Source: Bacteroidia bacterium (GTDB lineage: Bacteria; Bacteroidota; Bacteroidia; M30B66). From it: a DNA stretch of 64,000 nt. The position numbers and the translations under genes were made by a program. The notes below the pieces were generated by a model. That model saw only the letters and a list, made by a program, of their open reading frames with translations. It made no database searches and was not told the DNA's origin. Shown here one piece after another: positions 8,501 to 64,000 of this stretch; positions within the stretch are counted from its first letter, which is position 1, and every line of letters starts with the position of its first letter. The stretch is from positions 86,626 through 150,625 of the forward strand of contig CBDIHM010000003.1 of the NCBI GenBank assembly GCA_965279035.1. The letters run 5' to 3'.

Positions 8501-9086
8501 CGATGTTCTATTCATGTGGTGATGTTCCCTGCGTGCATGCGCGCAGCTGTTCACAAGAGGGGCGGCGCGGGCGCTCTACAGCAATCAGCATCTGCAGCGG
8601 TGGTGCTTCGATGTGGAGCTCATATTTCTGGCGCAGCGGCTGGGCATCCCCATTGTGGAAACCTCTGTGAACTGGACAGAAATTCCCGGTGCGCTCTGTT
8701 TTACCTACCAAATATGACAATGGCTGCTGAAATCTCTTGTCTACATTTGTGTGTGATTTTGACGATGGCCTAGTTTCTACTTCTGTTCTCAACACCACAT
8801 GGGCTGGCAACCTTGGCTCCGCCTCGTTTGCAGAAGCAGAAGCAGACAGCCCGGCGGTTGCAACAGAGGCAACAGAAGGAGCGGGTTGGGCCATTCATAT
8901 GCTGTAGGGACTATACTTGAATTACAGTACAAAACAAAAATTACAAGTATTTGTTCATGGTGCGCAGGATCCAAGGTGTCCATATCGTCGATAGTCCACA
9001 TGACATGGGAGATGGCGGCCATCCTGATCGGCTACTCGTGGCTGGGGCTCTGGCATATAAACACCTCGGCGGGGATAGCGCAATAG
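5525..9086 (+). CDS. ALG5: Dolichyl-phosphate beta-glucosyltransferase (GT2), about 8 exons
   Basis: N-terminal TM segment, then SLTIVVPAYNEEARLP, YEVIVVDDGS, NYGKGYAVKAGML, LLFMDADGAT, GSRAHLE, DTQCGFKLF, RWCFDVEL and WTEIPGSKV across exons with compatible phases. Confidence 0.93.
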
Positions 9087-10267
9087 GACAGAAGGCTTTC
9101 CTGAATGGCAGTTCTGCGCGGCCCAGCGGCCAGCTTGGTACCGCGAACAGTGTTGCAATGTGAAGAGACATGCGCCTTCTATTTTACTGTATAGAGAATT
9201 CCCGGTTCTCTGGGCCAGTAGATCCACCAAGACCTAGTCCTAGCTTAAGGCAGTGAGCTGACCTTAAAAGAGCAGACATGCTGCAAGCACTTATAAACAT
9301 AGACAGCATGCATGTGTGTCTACAATTGGATATCATCTCTGACAAGTAGCTCTTGCCCAGGCACTGGGTAGATTTCCTCAATGGGGAAGCTGCAGCATGC
9401 ATCATGCTGTTTTTGCAGCCAAGTTGCAAATCGGCCATGCAAAGGGGGCTCGCAGAGATCACTTGAATACGCCTTTAAAAATGCATATAACATCTGCGCA
9501 ATGCCCTCTTGGCAATTCCTTCATGTCAGCTTTCGTGAAATGTGCGCCGTGCATGGTAAGATTGAGCCTGCATAGCACTGCAAGGGAAGCCATCCTTCAC
9601 CACTGGTAGAAATCTGCAGACCCTGTTGGGCTGATGACACGCCCCGGAACCGATTGTTGCCAAAAAGCTCCAGCAGCACACAACTGCATAACTTCTACAG
9701 AAACCTATTAACACAGTCCGAACACGGTTGAATTCAGGACAGGAGCAGCTTGTGCCTCGCAAGGTAGAACAGGTAAGGAAATGCCCAGGACTAAAAGCGA
9801 TGGTAGCTTAACATATATAACATTCAAACAAATCAGTCACATTGTGGGTTCTCACCCACCTTCTCTCGTGCCTTTTAGAGATACGTAACCGCTTTTCACA
9901 ACCTTCGCGGGTTCCCAGCTATTGCAGCGACGATGTATCTCGCATTTTCTCGATAACATCAGACAGTTCTACACAAGGGCCCTGCGCTATGTGCACTGTT
10001 GCTCTTTCTGCAGAGAGTTGAGATTGCTTGATTGTGCTGCTCCAAAGCCAATTGTGAAGACATTCAGCGAGGGGCTGAAGCTATTATTGCTGTATTCGAA
10101 GGCTGTAACAATGTACATCAAGATGTATGGACAAGTGATGGTCTGCCGTTGCTGCCAGGCTCCCGCACGGCCACAGTCCTTCAGAAAGTGCATGTACGCA
10201 TCCTGTAGAGCAATTGCACAGCATACATCTGCAGATATCGTGCATTAAAACCGAAAAACTTGCTGGT

Positions 10268-21998: not shown

Positions 21999-23398
21999 AT
22001 GAAGGCACGAGCAAGTCGTCCTGCCCTGCCGAGTGAGGTTTGGGCCCTCATAGCAAGCAAGACTCCTCTGCAGTATTGGGCGAAAGCACAATGTGTTGCA
22101 AGGCATTCCGAAAGTTAATATGACAGATCTGTGTTGGATTCAGTAATTCTCCAAACGGTAGGCATGCCGGAGAGCTTTAAATTTATAAGGCGTGGGAGAA
22201 CAGGTGCAGCTAAACTCTCAGCGTGGCCATAAAGACAGGAATGGCGGCCAAGTGGTTGGCTTTGCACTTTTTCGACATAGGAGTGCTTTCCATCTACCTC
22301 AATGTCAATGACGACAGTTCTGATGAACTGGAAAAGTCTGTGTCAGTCCCTGGCAGCATTCCTAAGCTGCCAAACCTGCTGCAGCTGATCAATTGCTGCC
22401 CGCCATTTTCCAGAGCTGAGTGCAGCAGCATCATAAATAAGTGGGTCAACGCCATCCTTTTTGAGCACTCTGCCAAGCTTCAAGTGCTGTCTTTGAGCAT
22501 TGGAGCACTTGATCTGGCCCCGCCTATGCTCCAGCTCAACCACCTCCTGCTCAAGACCAGGGAGATGATATCTGATGAATGCTGGAGCAGCCTAAGCTCC
22601 CTGTCATGCCTGCAAACACTTCTGGTGGAGGGCTCAAGGTTGTGGGGCTCCGAGTTGTGGAAGGGTCAGGAGTATGTTGTGAACATGCGTGGCTGTGTGC
22701 AGCTGCAGAGTGTGTGCTTTGCCACCATGCTTCCTTTGTGGTCCGCGTTCCTGAGGCATGCTCCAATGCCATCAATTGCTCAGCCAAGCATGTGGTGAAT
22801 AGGGCATCCTGCATGAAGCAGTGCCACATTGCTCACTTGCATGTGGATCACCTGTTTGAGTCTGTGGATTGGCCATACTACAGGATTCTGTTTGGTAACA
22901 CATGGTACGGTGTCCCGCAGTCCCTCAATCTGACAACTTTGTCGCTGAGGGCACCAGCCGTGGGTACCCCAGAATGTCTGATGCTGGTGGATGGTGCCTT
23001 GCTTTCTGAGCTGAACACCCTGAGGGTCAAGTGCCAGACAGCTTGCTTGCGTATTGCAACTTCAGCAAAGTTGACTAGCCTGAGCATTGACAATGACAAG
23101 TCCCTATCCTTGCAATTTGAAGATCAGCAAGCCTTGTGCGCACAGCTGGAACAGTTTAGCTGTTTTGGCACATTGCATAAATGCAAAGGCGCTCCTGTGC
23201 TGGTAGCGAAGGGAACTATCAGAGCGTTTCCCAGGTGCCCAATGGTTCATTCGCATTTTTGATGTCAGTGACGAGATGGCCAGAGTCTTCTACTACCCAG
23301 CGGATGCTCTTCTGGATGATGTCAAGTGCAATTGCCGATGCTGTTCAGAATGCCTTTCCAGGGGTGACACAGCGTACCCATTTCCTGAAGAGGTGTAG
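21999..23398 (+). pseudogene. F-box-like / LRR-like protein, frameshifted (paralog of 50679-52185)
   Basis: LPSEVWALIAS F-box-like start; FEHSAKLQVLSLSIGALDLAPPMLQLNHLLL aligns with the paralog; C-terminal CNCRCCSECL. Frame changes are needed near 22095, 22735 and 23240. Confidence 0.65.
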
Positions 23399-28456: not shown

Positions 28457-31400
28457 ATGGCATGTAAGGCTTGGCACCTGGCCCTGCTCGCGGCCTGCCT
28501 GCTGCACAGCACAGGGCTTGCGCAGAGGAGTTCGTCCGGGGGAACTGCCTCTTCGTCCCGTAGCGGGGGGTCCTTCCGGGCCACCGCACCGCCACCGCCG
28601 CGCGCCGGGTCCAGCAGCCGTGGGGAGGACAGCAACAGCGGCAGCGGCGGCTTTGTCACTACCTTGAGCGGCGGTATGTGCACACCTGCGCTTCTGATGT
28701 CACTCCCTGCACGCTCAGCTCTCCGCCTGTGAGCAGAGCCGCCTCTGTTTCCGCGGCAGCGCGCGCTGCAAGAACAAGTGCATTCCATCTGTTGGCCATC
28801 TGTTGGTACCAACGTTGCCGCCGCTTGCAGCCGCATGTAGTGTCTCATTTGATTTCAGTTGCATCAGAGTACCTGGCCCAGAAGCAGCCAAACTTGAGAC
28901 TGTGGCAGAGGAGGGCCTCTGAAACCTGCAGCAAGAAGCACAATGCTTCAGGAATGCTGCGCAGCCCTAATTGACAGTGTCCGTGCATGATGGCGCAATT
29001 CCGTCTAGCTCAGAAGCTGACTGTGGACATGTCCCTGCAGGGTCGTCCTCCAGGAGTAGCAGTGGGGGGACCAACAGCAACAGCGGGGGGTCCGCATTTG
29101 GGACCCTCTCGGGCAGTTCATCGTCAGCTGCTTCTTCTTCTTATGGGTCCTCCAGCCGTGGAGGCAGCAGCCAGGACTCCTCCTTCCCAGGGGGAGGCCT
29201 GTCCACCAGTGGCAGCAGTAAATCCCAGGACACTACTAGCACTTTGAGCAGCGGCAGCTCACAGTCTGCGGGCACTACCACCACGAAGACATCGGCGTCC
29301 CCTAGCACGGGCACATCGGCCCTGACAGATGGCACAACTTCAACCACAACAGCAGCAACCACTTCTGCCGCCAAGCTTGTTGGCACAGTCACCAGTACAA
29401 CCTCCACGTGAGGCACAGCTGTGTGGATGACACCCTCATGCCCAATGACGCTTTTCATACAGTGTTTTTGGTACACCTTGTGAGAAATATCCAGCACAAA
29501 TTCCGTGCATGCGTGTGAAGAGGCAGCTTATGATCCTGCTGCCATGCAGGAATCCGCACACCCAAGCAACTGGTGAGTTTGCCAGTAAATTAATTACCAT
29601 GTGTGGCTGCACTGGGCCAGGAGTGGATGTGGAGTCGGGGGTTTGACCAACTGCGGAGGTGGAAACTCCGATCCGGTGATGTATGGCTTTGCCGGCCGCG
29701 CCTTCAATTTCATGGGCGACTCCGGCAAGATCTACAACATCATCTCCACCCTTAACATCCAGGTGCGCACACCTGGCCGCACATGACTGCACATGCCTTC
29801 ACAGAAGTCACTCACAGCTCGCCAAGGCATCTGCTTGGCATGCGGTTTGCTGGCTTGATTTGAGGGCAAGCAAGAACAGTTATAACGTAACAAATGCAGC
29901 TGGAAATGCTGAATGCTGACTCTTTGCTGTTGCAGGTGTCAATGAAGCTGAAGCTAGCACAGATGTGGGACCATAACGGCACAAACATGGAGGTGCGCTC
30001 ACTCCCTGACATATTCGTGACAAAGACTGCTGCTTGAGGAACGCGTGCGCCCATGATTGTCAGAACTTTATGGATGGGAACGCACTGCAGTCTGCAGCAA
30101 CGAGAATGCAGCAACGATGAGCATGGACTGCTTTTGGGCAGGCAATTGGATTCATGTACCGGAACTACAAGGTGCTGGTTTCGCTGGACGCTAAGGAGGA
30201 CGTGGTCGGTGAGTACCCCTTAGTCACCCTAATTAGACAAAATGTCATCATTTTTCACAAGTAGTCAAATCGAAGCCGAGAAACATGGCAACAGCATAGA
30301 CAGGATTGTTGTGCATTACTGTATGCAGCATTCTTGGTGAGCCAGCTTGCGGGTGCATGCTGCAGAGAGTATCAGGAAGCCATCTAGCGTGTGCCGACAT
30401 GTGCTGGCATGTGTGCCCGCAGTGACGGCACAGGGGCGCACACTCAAGGTGAAGAACATGGCGAAGCACTACGCATGGCGGTTTGACGACGGTGCATATA
30501 TTCAGACGACATGGGAGCGCTACAAGCCGGGCCTGGGCAACACCGTCACCATTGAGACCGGTGCGCTGCAAATCTGTATCTGACAATTTGACCCAATCTG
30601 ACATATCTGACACCTTCTGACTCGTGAGAATCCACAGTATATAGCCTGCTCTTTCCATGCCTTCATGCCTGGTTGGCAGAGTGGAAAGGAGAGCCAACAA
30701 GGCGGACACAGGCCATTCCATTTTTCGAGCACTGTGGCGCGTAGTGATGGTTGCTTTTCAGGCTTGTTGGCTGTGCCACGGGATGTGTGGTCTACCATGC
30801 TGAACAACCCAAAAGGCAGACAACTTCATGCTGGGGACTGCAGCAAAGCATAGGACTTGATGGTTGCACTCCTGCTGTGCAGTACTGCTTGTAGTGCTCA
30901 GCTGAATTCCTTGTGTGTGCAGATGTGTTGAAGATGACCATCTGGCAGACGCCGGCCGGTATTGTGGACGAGGGTGGCATGATCCTGGGAGCCTGGCTCA
31001 ACTTTGGGCTCAGCCTGGAAACGCCTCCGGCCAATGGCCTCATGCATGTGCGCGGCGCTGTTTATTTTTTGCCTGTCTTCAATCAATGACAAATGTCTGG
31101 AATGCCATGTGGCTTTGTAGAATGGGGACACAGTAGTGGCTCCAACTCAAGAGTGGGATCTCCAGTCCCTCGTGAAGCAAAGTGACCCACAAGCCGAACC
31201 TAGGAATGACCAAGTTGGCCGACTGGGGGGCAGTTTCGCTTGCGCTGTCTGGGGGAAAGCAGTGCCAAGAAACAGCTCGGCAGTTCGTTTGCAGGACCCT
31301 GTATGGCTTCAGCGTTGGCAGGCATACACGAAAGATTCAGTGGCAAGCTGACACGGCAAGTTGACATGGTTCCAGGGGATCGTGGGCGGGACTTATGACC

Positions 31401-31921
31401 GCTTCATAATGGGCGAGACGGCCGTCAGCGACCCAAAGAGCCAGCTCTACCTGCCTCCTGATGTGAGCACCTCCCTTGCGTAATATCTGCTTGTACAGTT
31501 CATAGATGAGCATCAAAGCGGAGTATTGCATGCAGCAAGGAGGACAGGTTTTGGTCCCGCGCAGATGGCCCTACAAGGGTGGCACTTATGCGATGTCTCT
31601 TTTACGATTTCATGGATGACACTGCTCGTGACATCTGCACTGCATAGTTAATGGTGCCGCAGATGACATCAGCGGCTTTGCTGAGGTGGATGTGTTTGGC
31701 AGGGGGCGTTCCACGGCCGGTACAAGGAGGAGGAATATGAGATGGCGGACCATTGGGACACCACCTTCAGGGCGAACCTGTTCGGGGTCCAAAACCCCTT
31801 TTCCCAGACGCAGCAGCAGGGGCGGTCAAATCTGGAGATCGACGCGCCTCAGGGGCCGTTCCCAGCTTTTGCCCGCGCATGCTTCCTCTGCGCGGCCACA
31901 CCCTCTGGCCACACTTTCTGA
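28457..31921 (+). CDS. Secreted Gly/Ser/Thr-rich protein with C-terminal root-cap/LEA-related (VWD-like) domain, copy 1
   Basis: Signal peptide MACKAWHLALLAACLLHSTGLA; low-complexity G/S/T stalk; NSDPVMYGFAGRAFNFMG...IYNIIS; GIVGGTYDRF; ends ARACFLCAATPSGHTF*. Confidence 0.75.
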
Positions 31922-34713: not shown

Positions 34714-37700
34714 ATGTCCAGCAGGGCCTGGCAGATAGGCCTGCTGGCGTTCTGCCTGCTGATAGCCACAGCCAATGGACAGAGCAGGGGGGAGGCAGCA
34801 GCCGGGGGTGGCACAATGGGAGGCGGTGGAGCTAGAGGGGGGTACAGGACCCCCCCAGCCCCCAGATACGGCAGCAGTGGCAGCAGTGACGACAGGGGCA
34901 GCACCGGCGGCTTTGTGACAACTCTCAGCGGAGGTGCGCGCATTCTCCACCTAATCTTTAGACTGCTCAGTGCATGCCGCACGCTCTGATCGAGCGCCCT
35001 TGATGCCAAACCTGCAAGCAGCCTTCTGAGCCCAGCTGCGCAGAAAGATCGCCACCGTCCGTGCCTGTCTCTCCTCCATAAATCAGCTCTGCCCTACACG
35101 GCGCACTGGAGTGCTCGGAAGTTCAGTCGATCGTCCACTAGATGAGGCAAGGTGTGACTTGAGTGAAACTTGTAGCTGAAGCCTGTGTCCATGCTTTGGC
35201 ATGCAGGTGGCGCCACATCCGCAAGGGGCACCACTTCTGGAAGTGGAAGTGGCAGCGGCTTTGCAACCACTTCTGCTGGCCTGACATCCGGCGGCACCCG
35301 CGCCGGAACATTAGGTTCATCAGGTTCATCAGGTGAACTACTTCGCCGCCCAGCCTCGCCTGCATTGACTCAGAGGATCAAACAGCACCCAGGCGCCTTG
35401 TGCATGCCACCCTGAGTGGCTTGTGGCGCACTGTCCAAGCATAAACAGCTCTGCCAGATACTAGTTATCCGCACATTCATGTGTGACAGAGAAAATAGGT
35501 GCTGACCGGTCGGGGGCGTTGCCTTTTGCAGGCACATCAGGCGGCACATCGGGCGGCAGCTCGGGTGGGACGCTGGGAGGATCTTTCGGCGGCGTGTCTG
35601 GCGGGCAGGCCACGGGGAATTCTGGGTCCTTCAGCGCCGGCAACAGCGGGGGGTCCGGAAGCGCCGGAACCACCACCGGGGGGTCCACTTCCTCCTCGTC
35701 CTCAGGTACAGCCTCGGCACGTCTTCAAAGATTGCGCAGAGTTCACAATCTTTTCACTAAATTGGTTCCAGAAACTAAATGAGGAGGCTCCTTGGTTGCC
35801 ATTACACAGTGGGGGTGTCACCAGAGTTGTCAGAGTCTCCGAGCACCTTGATAGCCTGCAAATTAACAAGCATCTCCGCTATGCTTCAAGACTGGAGCCC
35901 ATTGCTGTTGAAGCCTCTTCATTTTCCTGGGAAAGGTCAGGAAGATGTGATTCTCAAGGCATCACATTGTATTGCGCAGGTACATTCTCTCAGACGCGGG
36001 GGTCCGGCACTGCCACCACCACTACGGGCACCACCGGGAGGGCTGACACCACCCCAGCCACGACCACCACCACCGCACCCGGGGGGACATCCGCTGTCAT
36101 CTCTGGCGGCACTGCCACGTGCGTTCCCTCTCCCTCCCTTGAAGTCTTATCATGCTCTCTTCCATGCTACCAAGTGGGACTTTATGCCCTTGGTTTGAGA
36201 GAATCTTCTCCTCATGTGTGTGAGCTCCCGCTGGATTTCGTCATGCCAGATGCCCGGTGGATGGAGTACAAAGATTGTGCTCCTACTTGCAGTCGCCGAC
36301 CCTCAGACTAGCAGCACACTGCCAGCAAGTGCACTCAACAACAAAAAATAATGCCTGTCGGTGAGCTCATGGCATTGCAATCGTGCTGCTGTCTTCAAGA
36401 AGGAGTTCTGACACGATTGGCGCCTGTGAAACAGTGCGGCGACGTGCGGAGTGGACGGCAACCCGGCATGCGCGGGCGGCAACTCCGATCCCGTAATGTA
36501 CGGATTCGCGGGCCGCTCCTTCAACTTCATGGGCGAGGTCGGCAAGATCTACAGCATCATCTCCACGCAGACCCTGCAGGTGCGTGCTCAGGTTGCTTTG
36601 ATTTTGAACTCTGGAAGGCTGCACTGTGGCCAGAGCTGTGTGCATCTCAATCTGAGCACGCAGCCCTGGCCGCGTGCTGAGAGTGAGATGCAGACATGAC
36701 CCGTTGCTGTCCAGAGAAACTGAAGAGATAGTGGTGGATTCCTGAATCCAAATGGCTTTGGGTGTTGCTGCCCTGGGTGTTGCTGTTTTGTCTAGGGCTG
36801 TCAGGCACCAATTGCAGGAGAGTCAGTCCTATCATGAGGGCAGAGTGTCAAAGTCTTCAATATGAGCGCTGCGGCTGATGTGGCGGCTGGTGTGACTGGC
36901 GCAGGTGTCGATGAAGCTGAAGCTGGCCAAGATGTGGGACCATGAGGGCACCAACATGGAGGCCATCGCGTTCATGTACCGCACCTACAAGGTCCTCATC
37001 GCCCTCGATGACAACCAGGAAATGACCGGTGCGCGCCCCTTTCTTATCCCTTCGAACCCCCTGCAATGATCAGTCTGCTGGCCTGTGCATGCAAGACTTC
37101 AACGCCACAGTTTGATCCTGCAGGAGTATCCTCCTATTTATTTTCTGCCCATGCATTCACTCAGGCGAGCAAGGCGTATCTGGAAGTGATTTGAGGCGAG
37201 TCGAATGGGTTTGTTTGCTGCCTTGCTGCTTATCATGCCAGCGCTGCACAGCATGCATGCCCTTGTGCTGCTCGTGCTTTCCAGCAGGCTTTAAAAATGA
37301 AGATTGAGCATACCTGGTGTGCTGTCTGTTATGTCTGAAAATGGCGGCTGATTGGACTATGTTGTGTGTGCGCGCAGTGTCGCTGCAGGGCAAGGTGCTG
37401 AAGGAAAAGAAGACAGCGCAGCACCACGCATGGCGCTTTGAGAACGGCGCATACATCGAGACTGTGTGGGACAAGTACAAGCCTGGCCTGGGCAACACTG
37501 TCACCGTCACCACTGGTGAGTAATGCCTGCTACCTGCACCTGCCTGCACCTGCCCGCGCACTCCTCCTTCTTTCATGCTGTACTGTCAAAAGCATCATGA
37601 CCTACTTATGGTAGTTTGCATTGGGCATGGCGGCCAGCTCATCCGGGATTTTCACATCCTCTCCCCTGCTTGCATGCCTCCTGAAGCGTCACTTTTGGAA

Positions 37701-38733
37701 GTTCCGGTGCTCCCAGTATTTATAGGCGTTGAGCTTATGTGCTGAGTGGGCTGATGTGTGCAGATGTGCTCCGGATGACCATCTGGCAGACACCTGCTGG
37801 CATTGTGGATGAGGGCGGCGTTGTGCTCCCCTCTTGGCTCAACTTTGGCATCACCCTCCTGGGACCCCCCGCCAATGGCATCATGCAGGTGAGACCCCTC
37901 TGCCGCTCTCCCACTTGTCTTATATAATGCACTGATTGCTGCAATCATATTCATGATTGTCCTCTCAGTGAGGATGCCCCCAGCTGTAAGGAATGCCGTT
38001 AGTATGGAAGCCACCTCTCAAAATGCAGATTCGATACCTATTTATAGTCTCTTTGAGGCTGTCTCTTAGCCAGGTCCTGTACAGCTGCCAAATGTCTTCT
38101 CTACAGAGTGCTGACTGGTGCATTGTTCTTATCTGCAGGGCATTGTGGGAGGAACCTATGACCGCTACTTGGAGGGCGAGTCTGCTGTCAGCAAGCCCGA
38201 GAGCCAGCTGTACCTCCCACCTGATGTAAGCAACCCTCATCCTTCCTCTTGCACGCTTATCCCTGCCCAGATCAGGTTTTTTGCCATGTCATGCCTTCAT
38301 ACCTAGCAGGCTTAGCCTCCTCTTGGAAGCATTTTCTGAGCAAGCCTGTCATTCTCTGCTACCAAGAGAATGCACTGCTTCCCGCCAGGAGTCATTTTGC
38401 ACCCAAGAACACCACTGCTGACTTGTGCAATAGAGATTGCCAGAAATGTGTCCAATATGCAAGATTCAGAAGAATGTTGGGAGCAAGTAAGCTGACAGGC
38501 ATGTGCCGGCATGTGTGCAGGACGCGTTCCACGGCAAGTTCAAGCAGGAGGAGTACGAGATGAAGGACTTCTGGGACACCAATTTCCCGGCCAACCTCTT
38601 CGGCATCAACTCACCCGAGATCAAGGAGCGCTCCAGCCTGGAGGATGACACCAATCAGGCGGTGTTCCCTGTCTTTGCGCGCGCATGCTTCCTCTGCGAC
38701 CAGACACCCTCCGGCCAGAGCCACACCTTCTGA
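34714..38733 (+). CDS. Secreted Gly/Ser/Thr-rich protein with root-cap/VWD-like domain, copy 2 (tandem paralog)
   Basis: Signal peptide MSSRAWQIGLLAFCLLIATANG; NSDPVMYGFAGRSFNFMG; YKPGLGNTVT; MTIWQTPAGIVDEGG; matching intron positions in the domain; ends ARACFLCDQTPSGQSHTF*. Confidence 0.75.
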
Positions 38734-50678: not shown

Positions 50679-52185
50679 TCAGATGCCAGCAATCCCAAGG
50701 CAGGAGTGGCATGCCGTGCAGTCACATCCAACGCCATCATGGCTCGCAACATACTGGGGGAAGACAACCCTGCCCATCCTCTTTGGCTTCCCGCAGTTGT
50801 TAAGCACCCCATACCTTTGCATGACACATCTGAACATAGAGCCCTTGTAGCGCTCTGAGTTCATCACACCACGCCCAATTGACACGGGAGCCCCAGCCAC
50901 GTCCGACCATACTCCTTGGCAGAAAAAGTTTCCATATGATCGCACAGGGCTGGCTGATCCTCAACATCCAGGCGCATCGCCCATGTAGAGTAAATGCAAA
51001 AGATCTTGAGTTTGACTGAAGGCTTGAATGTCAGGTACGCAGTCTTGCAGTTGACCCGCAAGATCTGCAGCTCTGGGAATGTGTCGCTGCCTATCACCAT
51101 ATGATCGCCAAGAGTCCCCAGCTGCTCTACATCAAGCTTCAGCATAGTGAGTTGAGGGAAGCGCACCTGCTGTGTCCCCTGAAACGCTTCGCGCACGTCA
51201 ATCCAATCCACATATTCTATGGACTCAAACCTCCCATCCCAGGACAGCTCAGCAACCCTCCATTCTTCATGCCACGAGCACTTGTCAGTCAGCAATCTGG
51301 CTGCTGTGCACTTGACAGCCACGGAGCATGCCTCCGGCACCCAATATTTTGCAGGAAGCCGGGTGGAAAAGCAGACCCTCTGCAGCTGCACACAGCCACG
51401 CAGGTCTACAGCATACTGCTGACCATCCCGCACAGTCAAGGGCTCAATGAAAATTGTGACCAATTGAGGCAGACATGCCAGGCTTCCGCAGCACTCTGGA
51501 GAAATAGGGTTCCTGGTTATGAGCACCAGGTGCTTGAGCAGGAGCATGGGCGGGGCAGAATATAAAGCCCGGATCCTGAGAGACAGAACTGTCAGCTTTG
51601 CGGCATGCTCCACGACGATGTCCTCAAGGTACTTCTGGGCCGCCCTGCTCCTTTCACTTCTCTGTGGTGAGCAGCTGACCACCAGCTGCACCAGGTTGCT
51701 TGCCCTTGGGATGCTTGCAGGGCCTGATGCATAGTCCACAAAGTCATCGAAGCCGTCGTGGTTGATGTCCAAGTGCACGGAGAGGCCCGTGAAGTTCGAT
51801 GCGTGTCCAGCTAACCACTTTGCGGAATGTGTTCCCTCGATGCAGATACGTCCTTCTCCAGGGTGCACCTATTCATCAAGACAGCTCATAAGACACTTCT
51901 TCAAGTATTAGATTTCGTTCCATATGCATTACGATAGACACCATTTGTCTATCTAAATAGAATGTGCCGGACCTTTTGAAGCCCCTTGAAGGAGCAAGCG
52001 GTGGCTGCCCAGTCCTTTGACGGCAGGTAACTGGCAATGATGGCCCAGATCTCGATGGGAAGGGTAGGACACGTTCGCATCTTCACGGTTGCTTTCCGAT
52101 TCACTGAGAGCGTTTGCCTGACAGGTACTCTCTCAGCATTGCGTGGTTCAGCACAGACTTTTCTCCTTTTCCTGTTCTTCCCCAT
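50679..52185 (-). pseudogene. F-box-like / LRR-like protein with one apparent frameshift (may be intact if this is a sequencing error)
   Basis: PTLPIEIWAIIASYLPSKDW F-box-like motif; 334-aa ORF with LxxLxL repeats. The C-terminal CDCTACHSCL lies in another frame, which is restored by one extra base in the A-run near 50925. Confidence 0.65.
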
Positions 52186-55405: not shown

Positions 55406-58400
55406 ATGTCGGTGCGATTGGTCTCACAAGATACGGGTGCTCATCTTGAGCTTGGCTCGGGGGATACTTTCTCGCTGGGACGGAAAGCAAGTCTCGGCAT
55501 CAGTGCAAAGAATGTGAGCAGGGATCATTGCACGGTCACGACAGGTGTCGGCTCCGGGCATCTTGTACGGCCAGTCGTCTCTGCAAACAAGAAAGTTTAC
55601 ATTCTTCGTCACGGCGAAGCCGCAACGCTGCATGCGGGGGAATTGTCCGAGGTGCTAGATTTTTTAGCTGTAATGGATCTCTGTATGAAGACTGATTTAT
55701 GCAAAAAAAGCGCTTCAGAGGTTAATCGAATGCCCTTCCTGATGCAGCTGCTTCATGGGGACACACTGTATCTCACCCAGGAAGGGAGTCAATTCAAGCA
55801 CGGTTTCTTTGTCGATATTCCCGGGTCACGGCTGCGTGACCAAGAGGTAGTTGCATGCCCACCTTGCCCTTGCCCAGATCACTTCTAGGTGGAGTGCATG
55901 TGAGGCAAGAAGAGAGCTTCATGGTGCCTTCCCTGTCCCTTAGGCCGCGATTGGAGCAGATGCAGTTTTGCTTGATGGATGAATGCCGTGTCAGATCGCG
56001 TCGTGGCACTTATACTGATTATCATGTTGCCGTAGTGCTAATCCTGGTTTCCTGTTGGTAGGCTGGCAATGTGCACCAACCTAAGTATCCCCCTCTCGGA
56101 CAATCACCGCATTCCAAGAGGCAGCGAAGTTCTGGCCAGGGCAGGGAGGACCACCCAGCCCCCAAAGCCACTTCTGCTGGGCCAAAGGCACAAAGTGATG
56201 TGCCCTGCTCAGTGAACACCACAGACGTATTCTGTGGCCTCACCTTTGTCTTTTGGACGACACAATTCATGACTCCTCTCATGATCAGGTGCAGTATGCT
56301 TGCTGCCTGACCTCTCACTTCCCCATAGGGAGCCTATAGCACAGCAATGATCAGATGGACGACCGCAACAGATTCCCAATAAATATATTTCTGCTCCTAG
56401 AGCAAAGCAGGCTGGTGCGGAAGTGACAGAGGAGCTGCTCATTAGAACCACCACGCACGTGGTTGCAAGCAGAGACTTTGATGCAGACGAGGCTGCCAGG
56501 AAGCTACAAGTTGTGGAGATGCATGCAACCACAGAGTGCTATGAGGTACGGGTGGACCTTCAATGCAGCAGGGCTGCTGTGTTACTTTCCTGAACAGTAC
56601 AGGCATGCCAGTGCTGGAAAACACTCATGCAATCCCAGACATGCAGGTATCATATGACGGCGGCAAGCTTTTGAGGCTGCCAAAGGAGGTTCATTTTGTC
56701 ACGCCAGAATATGTGAGCGAATGCCTCGCGCATGGTCAACTGCAGCCCGAGAGGGAGTTTTTGATAGACATAGTGCGCATGGCTGTTCTGGCCACTGGAC
56801 AACAGGTATCAGTTGCTGCTCTACTGTGAATTTTAGCACATGCGATGCTTTCACTGGAACTGCAAAGACCTGATGTGGCTGGCTGGATACTGTCAAGCTT
56901 AGCATGTATCTGGCCAGGATGTGGGCATCGCAGATCTGGATGTCACCATGGCAGGCAGCGTGCATAGACGAGGAGCGCATCATGATCAATCAACTTCGCA
57001 GGAGGCCGGCACCGAGGCAAGTCCTAACCATTCAACATGCCAGCTGCTCTCGGCACAGAATCTCGTTGGAGGTTTCTAGTGCATGCACTTCGAGGGAGTC
57101 TCACCGGCCGTCGCCCACATACTGCAAGTCTGCTGTGTCTGTCGCTCAGTCGCATGCAACAATTATCCTGTGCTGAAAGCAATGTTCTGCAGGCTGCGCG
57201 CAAGAGCGACAGCAGGCATGGAGGGGATCTGAGGGAGCCCAGCCGGATACATGCGGAACATCATGGCGGTGGAGAAATGTCGCGGGATGTGTGGGAGCAG
57301 TGGCAGAGGGCTGGGTTTGTGCCTGCACCTGCAGCGACCCTGAATAGCAAGCATGGCAGCAAGACACGTGATGCTGCCCCGACCAGTCATCCTACAAGCA
57401 AAGATGTGGATGTCACAGAGAGAGATCAGGGGGCATCTGACGTCAGCAAGCCCTCCTTGAACAGCAAGGTCATCGCAGAGTCTCCTGGTGGACTGGTGCC
57501 CCATATGGACACTTCCTCCACAGTCACAGAGCGGGGATCATGTGGAGTGTGGGACGTGGCCTATGACAAGAGTGCAGCAGAGGAGACTGTCAGGAAGCTG
57601 GGCCTGCACTGGCACCGACAGGAGGTGGAAAGTGTCAAGCATGCTGCAGCTGACGGCAGTGGGGACCGCACTTCAGGACCTGGGACTACTGTGAACGGTG
57701 GGATTCCAGGGCATAATGGAAGCCAGGAATTGGCATCCTCTGCGCTGAACAATTCCTGTGCCCACACGGCATGCTCGGCAAAGGTGACCATTTTCAAATA
57801 CTGCATGCAGCGTTTACACTAGATTAAGCTTTGACTTTTGTTTGTTGTTGTATACTGAGTATACTGAGTATACTGAGTATACTGACATAGTATACTGAGC
57901 TTGGGAAAGAAAGCCTCACAGCGAGCATGCCTCCCGACTTGCGCAGGAGTTTTGCATAGTGGATCAACTCGAGGAAATTGAAAGGAACTACCGGAAAGGG
58001 AGAGATCAGTTCAAGATAAAGGTGCCCTGCGCACCACATGTTTACAATGTGAGAAACTTTGTGCAGGAGCCAAGGAAGGCTGCCAGACCCACTGACTCCT
58101 AGCTCCTGTACAGGCCATTCAGCGCGCAATCAAGGCAGTGGTGGAGTCGACCAGTGCTCTGGTGACAGCAGAAGACTGTGAGAAGCTAGGCATCGGAGAG
58201 AAGTCCATCGAGAAACTGCAGGAAATTGTGAGCACGGGAGAGTACCGCCGCAATCAAATCATGGCGCAAGACCCTCATCATCGTGCCATCTCTTTGGTGA
58301 GACAATTGTTGGCTGCTGGCCCCTTAATAATTCCTTGCACTGACCATGTTCCCCTCACAGTGCAATAGGAACAGGAGTGGGCTGCTCATTCATTGTCTGC

Positions 58401-60057
58401 TGGCCCCTTATTGATATCTTGCCCTGATCATGTTTGCCGCACAAAGGAGTAGGAATAGGAGTTGGCTGCTCACTCACTGGTGTGCAGTTCATGGAGGTGT
58501 GGGGCACTGGTGAAGCCACTGCAGAGCGCTGGTACCGGGATGGCTGCCGCTCACTGGAGGATGTGCAAGGCCGCTCTGACTTGAGCATGCAGCAGGTGGG
58601 TATTTTGATTGGGGCCGAGTCTGACCTTGAAATTGGACCGAGATTTCTCAACATTCTCATTCGTACAAAGGCACCGCCCATTGTCATGCGCTCACAGGCA
58701 TTGGCAGCCATCGTGGCATGTCATGTGAACACTCCATTTGCTGGGCCAACGAAACGTCTTTTTGGCATTGACTGACCTGTTGTGTGCCAGAGGACGGGCC
58801 TGAAGTACTTTGAGGACTTCAAGCAGCGCATCCCTCGGTCCGAGGTTGCTGCCATGGGCGCCATCGTGTGCGATGCGGCTGAGGAAGTGCTTGACTGTTC
58901 CAATTTGCCAGATGGCGACCTGCTGTTCTGCAGCGTTTTGGGAAGGTGCTCTCTCCTGTCTTTTGCTGACAACTCCATTTGCAGGGAGACTGCCTAAGTG
59001 GCATGGAGTCCTTTGATCTTGTCAAGTCAGGGAGTACTTTTTCATATTCAAGCGTTTCATAACAGGGCTTTCTGGGGTGTGAACAGCTACACGCGAGGCA
59101 AGCCGTTGACAGGCGATGTGGACATGCTCATTGCACCTCCTCCTAGCTGCGGCGAGATTGACAGCAGGCAGGCACTGCATGCCATCTGCAAGTGTCTCCA
59201 GAAGCGGGTGCGTCTTCCTGCAAGAAACAACACATCCCTCTCTTGTAAATTTGCACATGGGCACTTTCAGCGTGCTACTTCCTTGCAGCATTTGCACATT
59301 AAGATGACTGTGCTAAACTTAAGTTCTGCGGGTGCTATATCAGGGCCTTCTCCTGGACGACATGGCAAGCACTGCCCCTGCTGCCAGGGGGGATGGTGCC
59401 GCTACCTTCATGGGTGTGGCTCGCCACACAACATCCCCCTGCGCCCGGCGCGTGGACATCAAATTCTATCCCCGCAGGTAGAGATTGGACTGCGTCTGTT
59501 GCTGGTAAAAGCAAAGTCTGCGTCAGTGTATCAGGAACAGCCCATGGTGACACCCCAGCACAAGGTTCAGGTCGCATCCAAATGTGTTGTGCTGTTGCTA
59601 TGCAGGGTCCTGCCCTTTGCCATCATGCACTTCACAGGCAGCGGCGCCTTCTCAAGAGCGCTGCGATACTGGGCACGGTCGCGCGCCAATGAGGCACGAA
59701 GGTTTCAGCCGAGTGCGAATGGCTTCAAGCTAAGCGACTACGCATTAGTGCCCATCCAAAGCAAGGAGCCTACCCGGCAGGCGTCCAATTACCACAATGC
59801 TGAAGTACGATCCATTTCCTGCCTGATGTCATGTGCACCACATTGTATACTTTGCTGATGTCAACAAGTGAAGTGCTCAGATGGGGCACATGCTGTTACT
59901 GTCACCAAAAGTGTTCATGGTTGAGTCAATTTGTTTTTATGAATTACAGGTGGAGCTGGGTCCATCACTGGACTGCAACTGTGAAGGCGAAATATTTCGA
60001 GCTCTTGGCCTGGATTATGTCCCACCGCACATGAGATACTTTCATAATTTTGAATGA
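55406..60057 (+). CDS. POLL: X-family DNA polymerase (Pol lambda-like) with N-terminal FHA-like and BRCT domains
   Basis: FHA-like FSLGRKASLGISAKNVSRDHC; BRCT VFCGLTFVF...THVVA...VTPEYVSECL; HhH GIGEKSIEKLQEI and VWGTGEATAERWY; GSYTRGKPLTGDVDMLI; RRVDIK; HFTGSGAFSRALR; IFRALGLDYVPP. Confidence 0.88.
57851..57899. repeat. Intronic 9-bp minisatellite (tatactgag)n
   Basis: Four tandem copies plus one interrupted copy; adjacent units create the palindrome agtatact. Confidence 0.85.
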
Positions 60058-60270
60058 AATACGTGTTGGCATTGAGCGCACATGTGTACATCTGTACAGC
60101 TTTGTGCATGCAGCTGTTCAAATTGGAATTCATACGGTGTAAGTGTTGGTACATTGAGTTCAGTAATCCAAAATTTAGACCATCGCTTATCATATTCTGG
60201 TACTGCCGCATAAAGTGTCTACACTGACCGCAGAGTGCCGGGATGCGCATAGTGCACCCGGATGGGGTAA

Positions 60271-60423
60271 TTTTTTTTTTTTTTTTTTTTTAAGGAGAAC
60301 CCCTCTATTACAGGCATGAGGGTAGCGAACTTCCCAACACACACATAATAGGATATTTAGGGAAACCTGACCGAGTTTGGGGCACGCAAAACACTCCCGC
60401 AGGAGGATAGGGCGATACCCAAG
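60271..60423 (-). mobile_element. Retroposon-like structured 3' end with genomic poly(A), left copy
   Basis: T21 at 60271-60291. On the minus strand TGTAA lies 16 nt before the tail. About 85% identical by hand alignment over the ~94-nt core to 62808-62900. Confidence 0.7.
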
Positions 60424-61426
60424 GAACATCAAAGCAATGGGAAACGGCATGGTCACAATGGCAATCGTGTCCAGACAATCAAGGACAATCAATCATCGTC
60501 GATGGAATGTAGGAAGGTAACAATAGGGCCTAACGCGATGACTAAGTCGGGCAGTCAATAACGCCCACTGGTTTGCGGGAAGCTAATCTCTTCAAAGTCA
60601 GTGACAAAGCATGGCAAGCTTCATACAACACACCAACCCAGCAGTGGGTTGGGATAGGCAGGAGGTACCATGTTCTCAGTCCTAGACACCCGCTCAATAT
60701 GAACACACATGAGAGTTATGAATGCACAGGAACAATGAGGAATGCACCGGATGACACAATGTGAGGGGAAGGACACGTGATGGACACACTTGATGAAATG
60801 ATTCTAATGGGGTTGGAGACAAGAAAACACAGGAATTTGCTACCAGGACCCTGGGGAGAATGGGCTTCATTGAATGGGTGGCAGCGTCAAAGCTCTCCAG
60901 CGCGCCGGTGAAGAGGTGCACAGGTTGAGGGGCGCACGACTGAGCCGCCCGACCGGGAGAACCCGGTACATGAGAGCCGGCGGAGCATGTCTGTGGGGGC
61001 GAGGCCACAAGAACTGGTGGGTGAGGCCAGTGCCCCAGAAGGGAAAGGAAACCCCAGGGGCCATGCCCGGCCGTGCTCTCTGGGATCTTATCATGCAAGG
61101 ACACGGGCATAGAGTCATTCGGCTAGATTACACCCAGGCTTCCTTCCTGTCACACGCCCTCTAGATTGACCTGCACACGAAGATGTCACGTCAACACCCA
61201 TTCTGCAAACTAGCCATGTCATGTGTTAGAGCCAAAAATCCAAAAGGTGCAAAACTCGAGTCGTGGGCGGAAATCGGGGAGGTACTAGTGTTTTTCAGTG
61301 CTTTGTGGGGAATTGTGGAGTTGGGGACAGGCTGGCACGTGCCTTCTAGGTGCTGTGTGGATTGCAGCAGATCTTGCACGCTGAGAAAGGTGTTGTAAAG
61401 TTACTAAAAAACGAAAAACAGCAATT

Positions 61427-62942
61427 ATGGCGTTCGCTAGGGGCGACAAGGGGGTACGGCCACTGAAGTTGGGAGAGATCACGCACAGTTGGGGTGACGG
61501 AGCTCGCAGAGGGGATGTTCGGCAGGAGGTCCAGGCGCACTTGGCGGTGCAGAGGCCTTGGGTGTTATCGATGACAGAACAGGTACTTGTCATCCTCAAA
61601 GGTGGGCGTAGCAAGAAGATGGGGGAGGTGAAAAAGCGAAGTGCAGGGTTTGGTCGGATGCTTGAGCAGACGCGGACGGATATGGACGTTTGAATCGGAA
61701 AGAATTGCTGAGAGCATTGTAAAGTTGAAGGAGATCATTCATTTTGACGAAAAGGCCCTGGATGCTGACATGCGTGTGTGCAATGCAGAATGTGGCGGAG
61801 GCAAGAAAGTTCAAGGATTTCTGGAGGGCGAACCTGGGGCACGCAGCAGCGGCCGTGACGTCTTTCGTGAACGTGAACGTCATCAACGTGTCCGGGATGG
61901 CAGGTATGTCTGAAATTGTCAAGCATACAGATGTATAGATTTGGCAGTGAGAAGTGGAAAGCGACCGATACCAGACAAGCGAGTTGGAAAGCCCTGAGCT
62001 GGAGTGATTTATATGATAGGATGCAGAGAGGTGCATATGCAGAATTGACATGGTGGACGGAATTGCCATTGCAAAGAAGTGCCTGACTGACAGGTGGAAT
62101 GTGCTGGTGACTTGCAGGAAACTGCCTGCTGCATTGCACACTGCATGCAGCGACAAGCCTGGATGACGTCATGGGGCATCAATCCCGGTGACAGCCTGGA
62201 GATGCAGGCAGCGACCCTGAGATTCTGGTTCAAGTCGACATACGAGACGTTTCTGGGAGAAGCACAGGGCAGGGGCGACGCTGCCATGGCCGCAGAGTGT
62301 CTGCGGCTTGTGGAGAGCCTGCGTGGCAGCGAGCACCCGTACGAAGACATGGCGCACCTGATCAGCGAGCAGCTGCGCGCCGATGTGTACGTGGCGCGCG
62401 TGGAGGACGAGCGGCTGTTCACAGCCGAGCGCCACCGGCTGCACGCAGGTGAAAATGACAAACAGTGTTGAGCTGACATTAGAATACAATATACGAATCC
62501 GAACGCGATCCTGTTCTATCCCTGTCGGCCAACCGTATAAACGTGCCTTTCATGTCTGTTCCACCACTGGTTGCCCGCACATCCATAATTGCCTGCCAGC
62601 GATTGATGATTGCCTGCTTTGCTGTGACCCCTGCCTCCAGCTGCAAGCCCTAGGCTTGCCCCGTGGGTCCTCCAACGTCACCTCAGCGGTGTTGCGTTGC
62701 CGGCGGGCTGGAGTGCGCCTCTGGGGATGAGGTTACCCTCTGGTGCTTGGGACATGTCCATCGCTAGGAGTTCCCTTTCTGTGGTATGCCTTCATGCTTG
62801 CGCTTCTCTTAGGTATCGCATTATCCTCCTGCGGGAGTGCTCTGCGTGCCCCAACTCTGACAGGTTTCCCCAAATATCCTATTGCATGCGTGCTGGGAAG
62901 CGTGCGATTGGCACCTATGTAATAGCGGGGGCTCCCCCTTAA
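61427..62942 (+). CDS. Intron-containing orphan gene (possibly decayed) between the two poly(A) modules; model tentative
   Basis: Coding-like exons with GT-AG ends: MAFARGDKG...SMTEQ (61427-61582), NVAEARKFKDFWRANLG... (61789-61903), ...GINPGDSLEMQAATLRFWFKSTYE...RHRLHA (62151-62448). One frameshift in the G-run 62173-62176 is needed. No recognisable domain. Confidence 0.4.
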
Positions 62943-62957
62943 AAAAAAAAAAAAAAA
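62808..62957 (+). mobile_element. Retroposon-like structured 3' end with genomic poly(A), right copy
   Basis: A17 at 62941-62957; TGTAA at 62918-62922; terminal GC hairpin gggg-gctc-cccc; inverted homolog of 60271-60423. Confidence 0.7.
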
Positions 62958-64000
62958 TCCAGTAGGGAGCCCAGACGCGGAGAATATTTGAACTGTGCAA
63001 CAGTAGTAGAACAGACTATGGTAGAAGAAGAGGACATGAAGCGGTGATGAACTGTGAGCTCGCGATAGAAGAGTGCCGGGGTGTGTTGCGTAGAGACCGG
63101 GGACTTGGCGGATCGATGCGTGTGGATGTTTCTGCACAGCGGGCACTTCCAGGTCATTGTGTGCCGCTCGCAATAGCGACTGGTGTTGAGCCCCCGGACC
63201 TCGGCTGATGGCATCGATCACTACTATATATTACCAGATGGTGAGCACTCACTGAGGCATGCATGCCATGGCATGCTGGGGCGCAATGTTGTGTTGGAGA
63301 CCTGAAATTCTGCCGGAGCGCATATGCAGAGATGGGGTCTCTTGTGTGACTGACACGCATGTGTGTATCAGTTGACAGCAAAAGCAAGCATGGCGGTGCC
63401 AAGCGGGGTGCTGATGACAGGCGCACCCGCCGCAGGCAGTGCCGCGGGATCGGGAGTCAATCATGCAGGGGGGCTGGCGGGCCCGGGCAGCAACGGGCGT
63501 GCAGGTGTGGTGACTAAGTACTCGCGTTTTCAGTAAGACAGCAATGGGTGTCACTGGAAGCTTCAGGAAATGATGGTGAAACTGCCATATGGTTTTGCAT
63601 GATCGATCACAGGGCGCCGGAGGGACTGAGTCCTTGCGTTTTCACAGGGTGCATGATCCTGTAACAAAGGGTTGACGAGGTGAAGGCATTGCCCCTTCCC
63701 AGTGGTGCACTCCAGCATCATATTGAGTGGCAATTGAGGCACTCACAGGTCAAAGCCCAAGCTATCACAGGCAGCACTACCCAGAGGCATCAGCAGCAGG
63801 GGAGCGAGTGCGGCAACTGCAGCATTTCGCTCGCACCACTGGAGGCCGCCAAGGCACCTAGAATGCATGGCACATCGAACGAATTCTACCTTCGCTTTTG
63901 GCCTGCGCTGGGGCAGGAGAGGCCTTCAGCAGCGGTGCCAGTCCAGCGCTGTGCCATCGCTGCAGTAGGGTCGCGCCACGCTCCTCTATAATTATAACTT

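Follow-up and report, generated by a model that had tools for sequence, protein, structure and literature searches.

What is the 133-nucleotide (nt) segment that runs directly into a poly(A) tract at positions 62808 to 62940 of the stretch analyzed here, and what might its RNA do? The stretch, which we call the window, comprises 64,000 nt of a contig filed under a Bacteroidia bacterium (GenBank assembly GCA_965279035.1, contig CBDIHM010000003.1, positions 86,626 to 150,625). A preliminary description, made from the letters of the window, had taken the segment and an inverted counterpart for the two arms of one unit. It had proposed a conserved, pseudoknotted RNA module that could be a reverse transcriptase (RT) recognition element, a ribozyme-like fold, or a nuclease scaffold. 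Our analysis indicates that the segment probably forms the 3' terminus of non-coding retroposons that end in poly(A), a family in which many copies are 5' truncated or 5' inverted, and that it combines a tail of the stringent L1 type with a 3'-end signal.

We asked whether the two inverted segments belong together. Both are present: positions 62808 to 62957 on the forward strand and 60423 to 60275 on the reverse strand are 79.5% identical over 151 nt (E = 1.5e-31), with tails of 17 A and 21 T residues. An 18-mer common to both occurs exactly twice in the window, where chance would give 0.02 matches with up to three mismatches, and an unfiltered covariance model search of the window detected nothing beyond these two copies (next match, 7.7 bits). 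We placed contigs of four public runs on positions 59800 to 63400 at 80% likeness. Summed contig depth over 62462 to 62945 was 3,965 to 9,749 compared with about 125 in the flanks (run X1), which is 30 to 80 times the flanks. Loose contig ends at 62498 share their upstream letters in three runs; other copies thus continue upstream. One such copy, at related locus L010 (positions 60 to 513), is 87.9% identical to 62499 to 62951 and runs on upstream. Because of the depth excess and the loose ends, the right copy (62499 to 62957) belongs to a family of tens of copies and is truncated at its 5' end. The depth of the left module is only about 1.5 to 2 times that of its flank, and the left copy therefore represents a rare, diverged subfamily. 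It is missing from a transcript contig of a related organism: in a contig of run X16 (record 17), only 10 letters separate 60259 from 61085, apparently an empty site for the left element. This contig is probably RNA because it is spliced at the polymerase lambda intron. The joint lacks canonical splice sites, and since 60260 to 60303 was masked in the comparison, its exact position is inferred. Contig depth, loose ends, and empty site do not bear out two arms of one unit. The two copies are independent insertions of different subfamilies, the intervening gene is merely flanked by both, and the apparent 2.7-kb inverted-repeat unit is explained as two ordinary retroposon insertions.

How far does the family extend? 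A metagenome scan with the 18-mer returned 18 loci, 11 that carry the family and 7 that are chance matches. The same 18-mer matched 9 loci in prokaryote genomes and 1 in viral contigs, all by chance and over the 18-mer alone, at 15 to 19.5 bits. A covariance model search with filters off found no extra diverged copy in the window and the 18 loci. Nine full or nearly full tails from four lineages (the window and metagenome contigs) could be aligned. They comprise a right type (the window copy, L006, and L010), the left copy, a third subfamily (L005, L013, L012, and L001), and L002, a decayed copy that lacks poly(A). Because one exact 18-mer retrieved all the copies, alignment columns 19 to 36 are invariant by construction and copies truncated inside the module are invisible.

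Within the module lie three hairpins, P1, P2, and P3 in 5'-to-3' order, with a linker between P1 and P2 (Table 1). The module is common to at least three retroposon subfamilies with differing upstream parts, plus one decayed copy. Between the right and left copies, identity is 89% in P1, 85% in the linker, and 75% over the whole module, compared with at most 52% in the 310 nt upstream. The third subfamily has a 240-nt body in common with the right type but not the 5' part; the right type and L005 are 85 to 88% identical in the body, 67% in P2, and 50% in P3. The interior of the left element is 73 to 84% identical to the 5' parts of the L005 and L001 elements. Thus, elements that otherwise differ share one tail, a feature of the stringent-type tails of long or short interspersed nuclear elements (LINEs or SINEs). 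As a separate observation, a 46-nt block in the left element (60651 to 60696, reverse strand) reaches a contig depth of 4,678 (bin 60647 to 60767) compared with about 160 in the flank, and is kept at 84 to 92% in the L005 and L007 elements. It is among the few segments that the left copy still shares with third-subfamily elements, along with the tail and a 5' head piece (60892 to 61036).

The module sits at the extreme 3' end of the elements. In the seven full and two partial copies with an A tail, it closes with CCTT, or CCTT plus one or two letters, and the A-run follows. The preliminary description had overlooked a TGTAA that stands 20 to 23 nt before the A-run in all nine of these copies; as a background, TGTAA occurs in the window at 0.00058 per base per strand. 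L012, which has lost its tail, retains the motif, whereas the decayed L002 no longer has it at the corresponding site. Third-subfamily copies carry it 2 nt further 3', and the opposite arm of P2 has changed along with it. According to passages of PMC1868727, UGUAA is the poly(A) signal of chlorophytes, trebouxiophytes included, with a peak near −17. By sequence position, all nine copies have UGUAA within the expected 15 to 25 nt or so upstream, and the invariant TGTAA is likely a green-algal poly(A) signal. Because the motif has a fixed place before the A-run, the element RNA is probably polyadenylated like an ordinary transcript. Two features speak against transcription by RNA polymerase III: a TTTT run in the left module and the length of the full-length copies (about 0.8 to 1 kb; L005, about 1 kb).

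We then asked whether the module folds as proposed. P1 is part of the minimum-energy fold in both window copies, as the preliminary description had it. Its outer stem is 85.5% paired over the nine copies, its inner part is fixed by the search pattern and so is uninformative, and RNAalifold favors a rival P1 pairing (alignment columns 15 to 23 with 30 to 37). The second stem does differ in sequence between the window copies and still pairs: each copy pairs at 13 of its 14 positions, and the two copies differ at 7 of the 14. Five of these differences are one-sided changes that keep the pair via G-U, one pair is lost, and one is gained. The minimum free energy (MFE) of P2 is −17.0 kcal/mol in the right copy (z, −1.95) and −15.4 kcal/mol in the left (z, −3.40). 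P2 folds as predicted in 8 of 9 copies (z, −0.5 to −4.7), with slight variants at most in decayed ones; in L002 it does not fold. Among its 18 pairs, 5 show two-sided and 9 one-sided changes, with 86.4% of cells paired, and the loop is AAGCGTGCGA or a close variant in seven of the nine copies. The terminal hairpin abutting the poly(A), P3, was likewise recovered, with 29 of 33 cells paired across the nine copies. P2 is the most diverged segment between subfamilies, at 63 to 67% identity compared with 85 to 88% in the body of the right type and third subfamily, and it keeps 12 or 13 of its 14 stem pairs.

The fold is specific to the strand that ends in poly(A). Counted over all helices, 216 of 250 cells are paired there, compared with 171 of 250 on the opposite strand; G-U pairs make up 55 cells. 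The second hairpin has energies of −17.0, −15.4, and −16.5 kcal/mol in the sense orientation compared with −9.9, −7.3, and −6.9 kcal/mol in the antisense. These values agree with the earlier proposal of an RNA-level structure on the poly(A)-ending strand that makes use of G-U pairs.

Is the pairing more than common descent would give? In the originally proposed fold, including the pseudoknot, 89.0% of 290 cells form standard pairs, compared with 41 to 60% when the partner is slid by one to three columns. A nested variant with an apical helix on P2 is 89.5% paired, and the slid controls over both folds range from 35 to 60%. In 500 column shuffles, the observed pairing or covariation score was never reached; the number of double-changed pairs was reached in 16 of 500 and the tally of further pair types in 19 of 500. 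Seven pairs of the originally proposed fold change on both sides. Including the third subfamily and L010 brings in double changes: A-U becomes U-A at two adjacent P2 pairs, and C-G becomes U-A in the apical helix. The claim of compensatory changes between the two arms fails for the window copies themselves, between which none of 33 predicted pairs changed on both sides and the pair-preserving changes are one-sided; true double changes come in once the third subfamily is added.

Because the structure came partly from the same sequences, we tested the 25 nested pairs of the preliminary description on copies that it had not seen, with the observed substitutions distributed randomly over bases of the same kind. 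L005 (P = 0.010 and 0.003), L013 (P = 0.015 and 0.005), and L010 (P = 0.014 and 0.0003) kept pairs beyond such placements. Differences within subfamilies were not pair preserving (P = 0.29 to 1.0). That pairs are kept between but not within subfamilies fits selection on source elements, followed by neutral decay of the inserted copies. P2 is a hairpin with compensatory changes and a conserved loop, in a small sample.

The pseudoknot needs a separate judgment. The preliminary description proposed that GGGAA in the P2 loop pairs with TTCCC upstream; in one alternative reading, this would be an H-type pseudoknot and the resulting tertiary fold would be the functional unit. The complementarity does exist: each of the nine copies has GGGAA or GGAAA in the loop and a matching TTCCC or TTTCC upstream, with 39 of 40 cells paired. 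In the third subfamily, the change from GGGAA to GGAAA is accompanied by a change from TTTCCCC to TTTCC upstream, so that five pairs remain, and A-to-G changes in the loop still give U-G pairs in the pseudoknot helix. However, that helix hardly varies. Three of its five pairs are invariant, one varies one-sidedly, and the sole double change depends on gap placement. Random-placement tests of the helix were not significant in the interpretable directions (P = 0.14 to 0.84). Two of its G residues are also needed by the apical extension of P2, which is preferred by energy, is in the MFE fold of six of nine copies, and has the C-G to U-A change. By our estimate, which was not computed, a 30-nt linker and a 19-nt loop would easily match over 5 bp by chance. 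Thus, a pseudoknot is possible as a model of the fold, and we think it unlikely that the module functions as a pseudoknotted unit.

We next turned to the element bodies. ARAGORN found no tRNA in the window and the 11 loci, Pfam found no domains in the element bodies, and the small-RNA head with an internal promoter that marks a canonical SINE was not seen. L005, L001, and L015 share a defined 5' end within about 15 nt. The window right copy, L013, and L012 are 5' truncated; L005 and L001 stand directly behind the poly(A) of another copy, tail to head; and L015 and L017, and also L007 and L014, have an inverted 5' segment beside a direct 3' segment. Twin priming of L1 elements yields 5'-inverted copies, and by analogy these copies look like twin-priming inversions. 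In detail, the direct, tail-bearing 3' segment adjoins inverted sequence, which is either an internal segment or a LINE piece (L015, 775 to 896 with 965 to 1018; L017, 856 to 930 with 937 to 1024; L007, 1 to 188; L014, 1 to 330). The body upstream of the tail as LINE coding sequence or 3' untranslated region (UTR) was also considered and rejected: there is no Pfam or ORF2 match, and indels between L005 and L001 break the frame.

LINE remnants do accompany the family. Directly past the poly(A) of L010 lies an RVT_1 fragment (E = 9.4e-12). Its best solved relatives are LINE-1 ORF2p (E of about 2e-9) compared with R2 at best 1.7e-4. It is 86 to 94% identical to LINE-1 ORF2 proteins of Coccomyxa and to the Zepp-type O64428_CHLVU, all of which have an Exo_endo_phos (endonuclease) domain and an RT. 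Of the 11 related loci, 5 contain fragments of Zepp-like L1 ORF2. In the window itself, 63806 to 63919 (forward strand), about 850 bp downstream of the right copy, gives a short, degenerate match to residues 484 to 528 of Zepp-like ORF2 (49 to 53%; E of about 1e-6). A scan of viral contigs for the LINE returned nothing. Separately, in a run X16 contig placed at window position 62695, a copy of the family in a related organism runs into telomere repeats of the CCCTAAA type, which fits the published link between Zepp-type elements and chromosome ends.

Among the three functions offered in the preliminary description, RT recognition fits best because the module has an extreme 3' position, is carried by at least three subfamilies, keeps its hairpins through changing sequence, has a conserved loop, and has L1-type fragments nearby. 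Judged from sequence, it would also match the tails described in PMC3472496. In the mechanism that we propose, a UGUAA signal in the element RNA itself would direct its cleavage and polyadenylation. A Zepp-like LINE of the L1 clade would supply the ORF2 protein that recognizes the hairpins beside the poly(A), as in stringent-type template recognition, and target-primed reverse transcription would start in the poly(A), giving 5'-truncated, inverted, and tandem copies. More tentatively, the 133 nt might be a self-contained mobility cassette, in which P2 carries a UGUAA that covaries with the opposite arm and, with P1 and the loop (perhaps also the pseudoknot), forms the handle for a Zepp-like, centromere-associated L1 RT. 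If so, any transcript acquiring the cassette would become mobile, and this would be a second green-algal class with stringent L1 recognition.

Several points weigh against a retroposon tail recognized by an L1-type RT. The column shuffles ignore relatedness, and related sequences can beat such shuffles without structure; the tested structure, as said, derives in part from the sequences tested. Taken as a whole, the 133-nt right module gains no stability over its shuffles (z, +0.11; 105 of 200 shuffles fold as well). The decayed copies L012, L001, and L002 show no excess of pairing (P = 0.20 to 0.61), with counts lowered for L001, which lacks the 5' end, and L012, which lacks the 3' end. There are only nine full copies from four lineages, and retrieval by a single 18-mer holds part of P1 constant and skews the 5' limits. 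In the 11 related loci and the window, no LINE ORF2 C terminus is followed by this tail, and no ORF2 residue beyond 1335 was matched. The host appears, by indirect sequence evidence, to be a soil-living trebouxiophyte green alga close to Coccomyxa, a placement that rests on identical repeat tails that the window shares with contigs carrying Coccomyxa-like LINEs. Last, the hairpins might serve 3'-end processing or RNA stability and not RT binding.

The points on structure could be taken further, to the view that there is no selected structure and that the pairing reflects common descent and chance in a GC-balanced repeat. The small sample, the right-module energy equal to that of shuffles, and shuffles that ignore relatedness would all fit. 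However, the slid-partner controls keep relatedness and yet give 35 to 60% pairing compared with 89%. P2, the most diverged segment, keeps most of its stem pairs and includes two transversion double swaps, and antisense pairing is clearly poorer. We regard the absence of selected structure as very improbable.

Another reading gives the hairpins a role in the transcript itself. They could serve 3'-end formation, stability, or export, for example by presenting or masking UGUAA and the cleavage site, with mobilization needing poly(A) only, as in relaxed L1-type recognition. TGTAA does lie within the P2 3' arm at a fixed distance from the A-run in every tailed copy, with its 2-nt shift matched by the opposite arm, and mammalian L1s and most plant L1s are held to recognize mainly poly(A) (PMC3472496). 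However, a poly(A) signal alone leaves unexplained P1 and the linker, which lie 60 to 110 nt upstream and are the best conserved parts between otherwise unalignable subfamilies (85 to 89% compared with at most 52%). It also leaves the conserved 11-nt loop unexplained, and a shared specific tail has a published case in the Zepp-like L1-1_CR of Chlamydomonas (PMC3472496; passages of PMC8226300). We consider it quite unlikely that the hairpins act on the transcript alone.

The other functions offered earlier, a ribozyme-like fold and a nuclease scaffold, found no support. A structured RNA as such would suit a self-cleaving ribozyme or a scaffold, and the 5' junctions of L007 and L014 do lie close to the module start. 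However, Rfam, which includes the known self-cleaving classes, gave no match at the gathering score anywhere in the window. Up to an E of 10, its sole match in 60200 to 63100 was RAGATH-25 at 17.8 bits, where the gathering score is 49, which is chance level; in the 11 related loci, there was nothing up to an E of 1. The L007 and L014 junctions were considered as a processing site and rejected as an artefact of how the copies were found: the 18-mer at the module 5' end limits the shortest copies that can be detected, so junctions near the module start are expected, and other copies are truncated elsewhere (62499 in the window; L013 and L012). We give a self-cleaving ribozyme or nuclease scaffold almost no credence. 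Thus, a folded, RT-recognized retroposon tail remains our preferred reading of the module.

Table 1. Positions of the two retroposon copies and of the features of their tails in the window
Feature	Position	Strand	Remarks
Right retroposon copy (R-type)	62499..62957	+	5' truncated, ends in A17; shortly past stop codon 62468-62470
Flagged 3' module, 133 nt	62808..62940	+	Covariance model R1, 143.8 bits; 79.5% identity to left copy
Hairpin P1, GGTATCGC...CTCC-TGCG-GGAG...GCGTGCC	62812..62850	+	Outer stem 62812-62819/62844-62850; inner CTCC-TGCG-GGAG 62826-62837
TTCCC in linker, proposed 5' strand of pseudoknot	62866..62870	+	Complementary to GGGAA 62895-62899
Hairpin P2	62879..62925	+	14-bp stem 62879-62892/62912-62925; apical helix 62893-62896/62908-62911; 11-nt loop GAAGCGTGCGA 62897-62907
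TGTAA, likely poly(A) signal, in 3' arm of P2	62918..62922	+	Right copy
Terminal hairpin P3 (G-run, CT, C-run)	62927..62938	+	Then TT and poly(A)
Poly(A) tail, 17 A	62941..62957	+	Right copy
Left retroposon copy, diverged subfamily, 814 bp	60271..61084	−	About 210 nt downstream of stop codon of DNA polymerase lambda-like gene, likely its 3' UTR
Poly(A) of left copy, as T21	60271..60291	−	
3' module of left copy	60292..60423	−	Covariance model R1, 122.6 bits
TGTAA of left copy	60308..60312	−	21 nt before A-run

In what genome do these insertions lie? The gene content of the window is eukaryotic, with short exons and GT-AG introns, and includes ordinary genes (RRM, RIO2 kinase, ALG6/8, ubiquitin-conjugating enzyme, and DNA polymerase lambda). 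The GC content is about 52%, and there is no RT gene among the 123 window open reading frames of at least 110 amino acids. The window is a eukaryotic contig, apparently green algal, and because of this the assembly is mixed or the metagenome bin is contaminated with algal DNA. The gene between the two insertions (about 61428 to 62470, forward strand) has no Pfam match, and its intron at 61900 to 62113 is seen in a run X16 contig. The stop codon of this forward-strand gene (62468 to 62470) lies 28 nt before the right element, which may now supply the 3' UTR and poly(A) signal of the gene. Elsewhere in the window, 29652 to 31911 and 36469 to 38717 share five collinear blocks of 70 to 89% identity in direct orientation, about 6.8 kb apart, probably a tandem duplicated gene or segment. 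Positions 22656 to 22784 and 51303 to 51432 form an inverted 130-nt pair (75% identity, 28 kb apart) that is possibly another small repeat family, and 58309 to 58480, within the DNA polymerase lambda gene region, holds an 84-bp unit twice in tandem (78% match).

A folded retroposon tail is an already known kind of feature, and this algal family is a further case. We found no published description of this particular tail in the literature searched; Repbase, Dfam, the original Zepp papers, and the repeat tables of PMC3446292 lay outside that search and may catalogue the family. The practical value of the finding is mainly for repeat annotation of Coccomyxa-like genomes and metagenome bins, and the location of the poly(A) signal inside a covarying stem is an attractive point that lends itself to testing.

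The closest parallels are the stringent L1 tails. In maize and sorghum, L1-clade LINEs have a conserved 3' hairpin and poly(A) that are shared with SINEs and show compensatory changes, as described by Ohshima (PMC3472496). The pairs include LINE1-1_ZM with ZmSINE2/3 and sorghum SINEs, and Chlamydomonas L1-1_CR with SINEX-3_CR, whose shared tail is about 80 nt (PMC3472496). According to passages of PMC8226300, L1-1_CR (= ZeppL-1_cRei) was later shown to be Zepp-like. Like these tails, the algal module is a conserved segment directly before poly(A), is common to different non-autonomous elements, has variable, covarying stems and a conserved loop, and is set among L1-clade LINEs of green plants and algae; the Chlamydomonas tail also has TGTAA shortly before its poly(A). 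Unlike them, it is longer (133 nt with three hairpins compared with about 45 to 80 nt), and its carriers have no tRNA or small-RNA head. By eye, with no computed comparison, it has no sequence similarity to the Chlamydomonas tail. The stringent L1 pairs share the tail with the LINE, whereas here the putative LINE partner is seen as nearby ORF2 fragments that end short of the C terminus and 3' UTR.

A second comparison is with hairpins recognized outside the L1 clade. The 3' stem-loops of eel UnaL2/UnaSINE1 and of zebrafish L2-type elements are recognized by ORF2p (PMC3472496; PMC4176376). By analogy, the algal hairpin with its conserved loop may be a similar RT recognition handle. The eel and zebrafish elements, unlike ours, are of the L2 clade, end in short repeats and not in poly(A), and are experimentally proven.

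A third comparison is with Zepp. This L1-clade LINE, from Coccomyxa subellipsoidea C-169 ("Chlorella vulgaris" C-169), ends in poly(A) and forms nested arrays of 5'-truncated copies, and SINEs have been reported in the C-169 genome (passages of PMC3446292 and PMC8226300). The LINE fragments adjoining our family are 86 to 94% identical to Zepp-type and Coccomyxa ORF2, and its copies, like those of Zepp, are nested, tandem, 5' truncated, and poly(A) tailed. Unlike Zepp, which the passages cited report in one cluster per chromosome, the two window copies are dispersed beside ordinary genes. If a Zepp-like LINE shares this tail, trebouxiophytes would be the third group in which the L1 clade combines a structured tail with poly(A), after monocots (maize and sorghum) and Chlamydomonas. 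Such sharing would bear on the published idea that stringent recognition is ancestral in the L1s of green plants.

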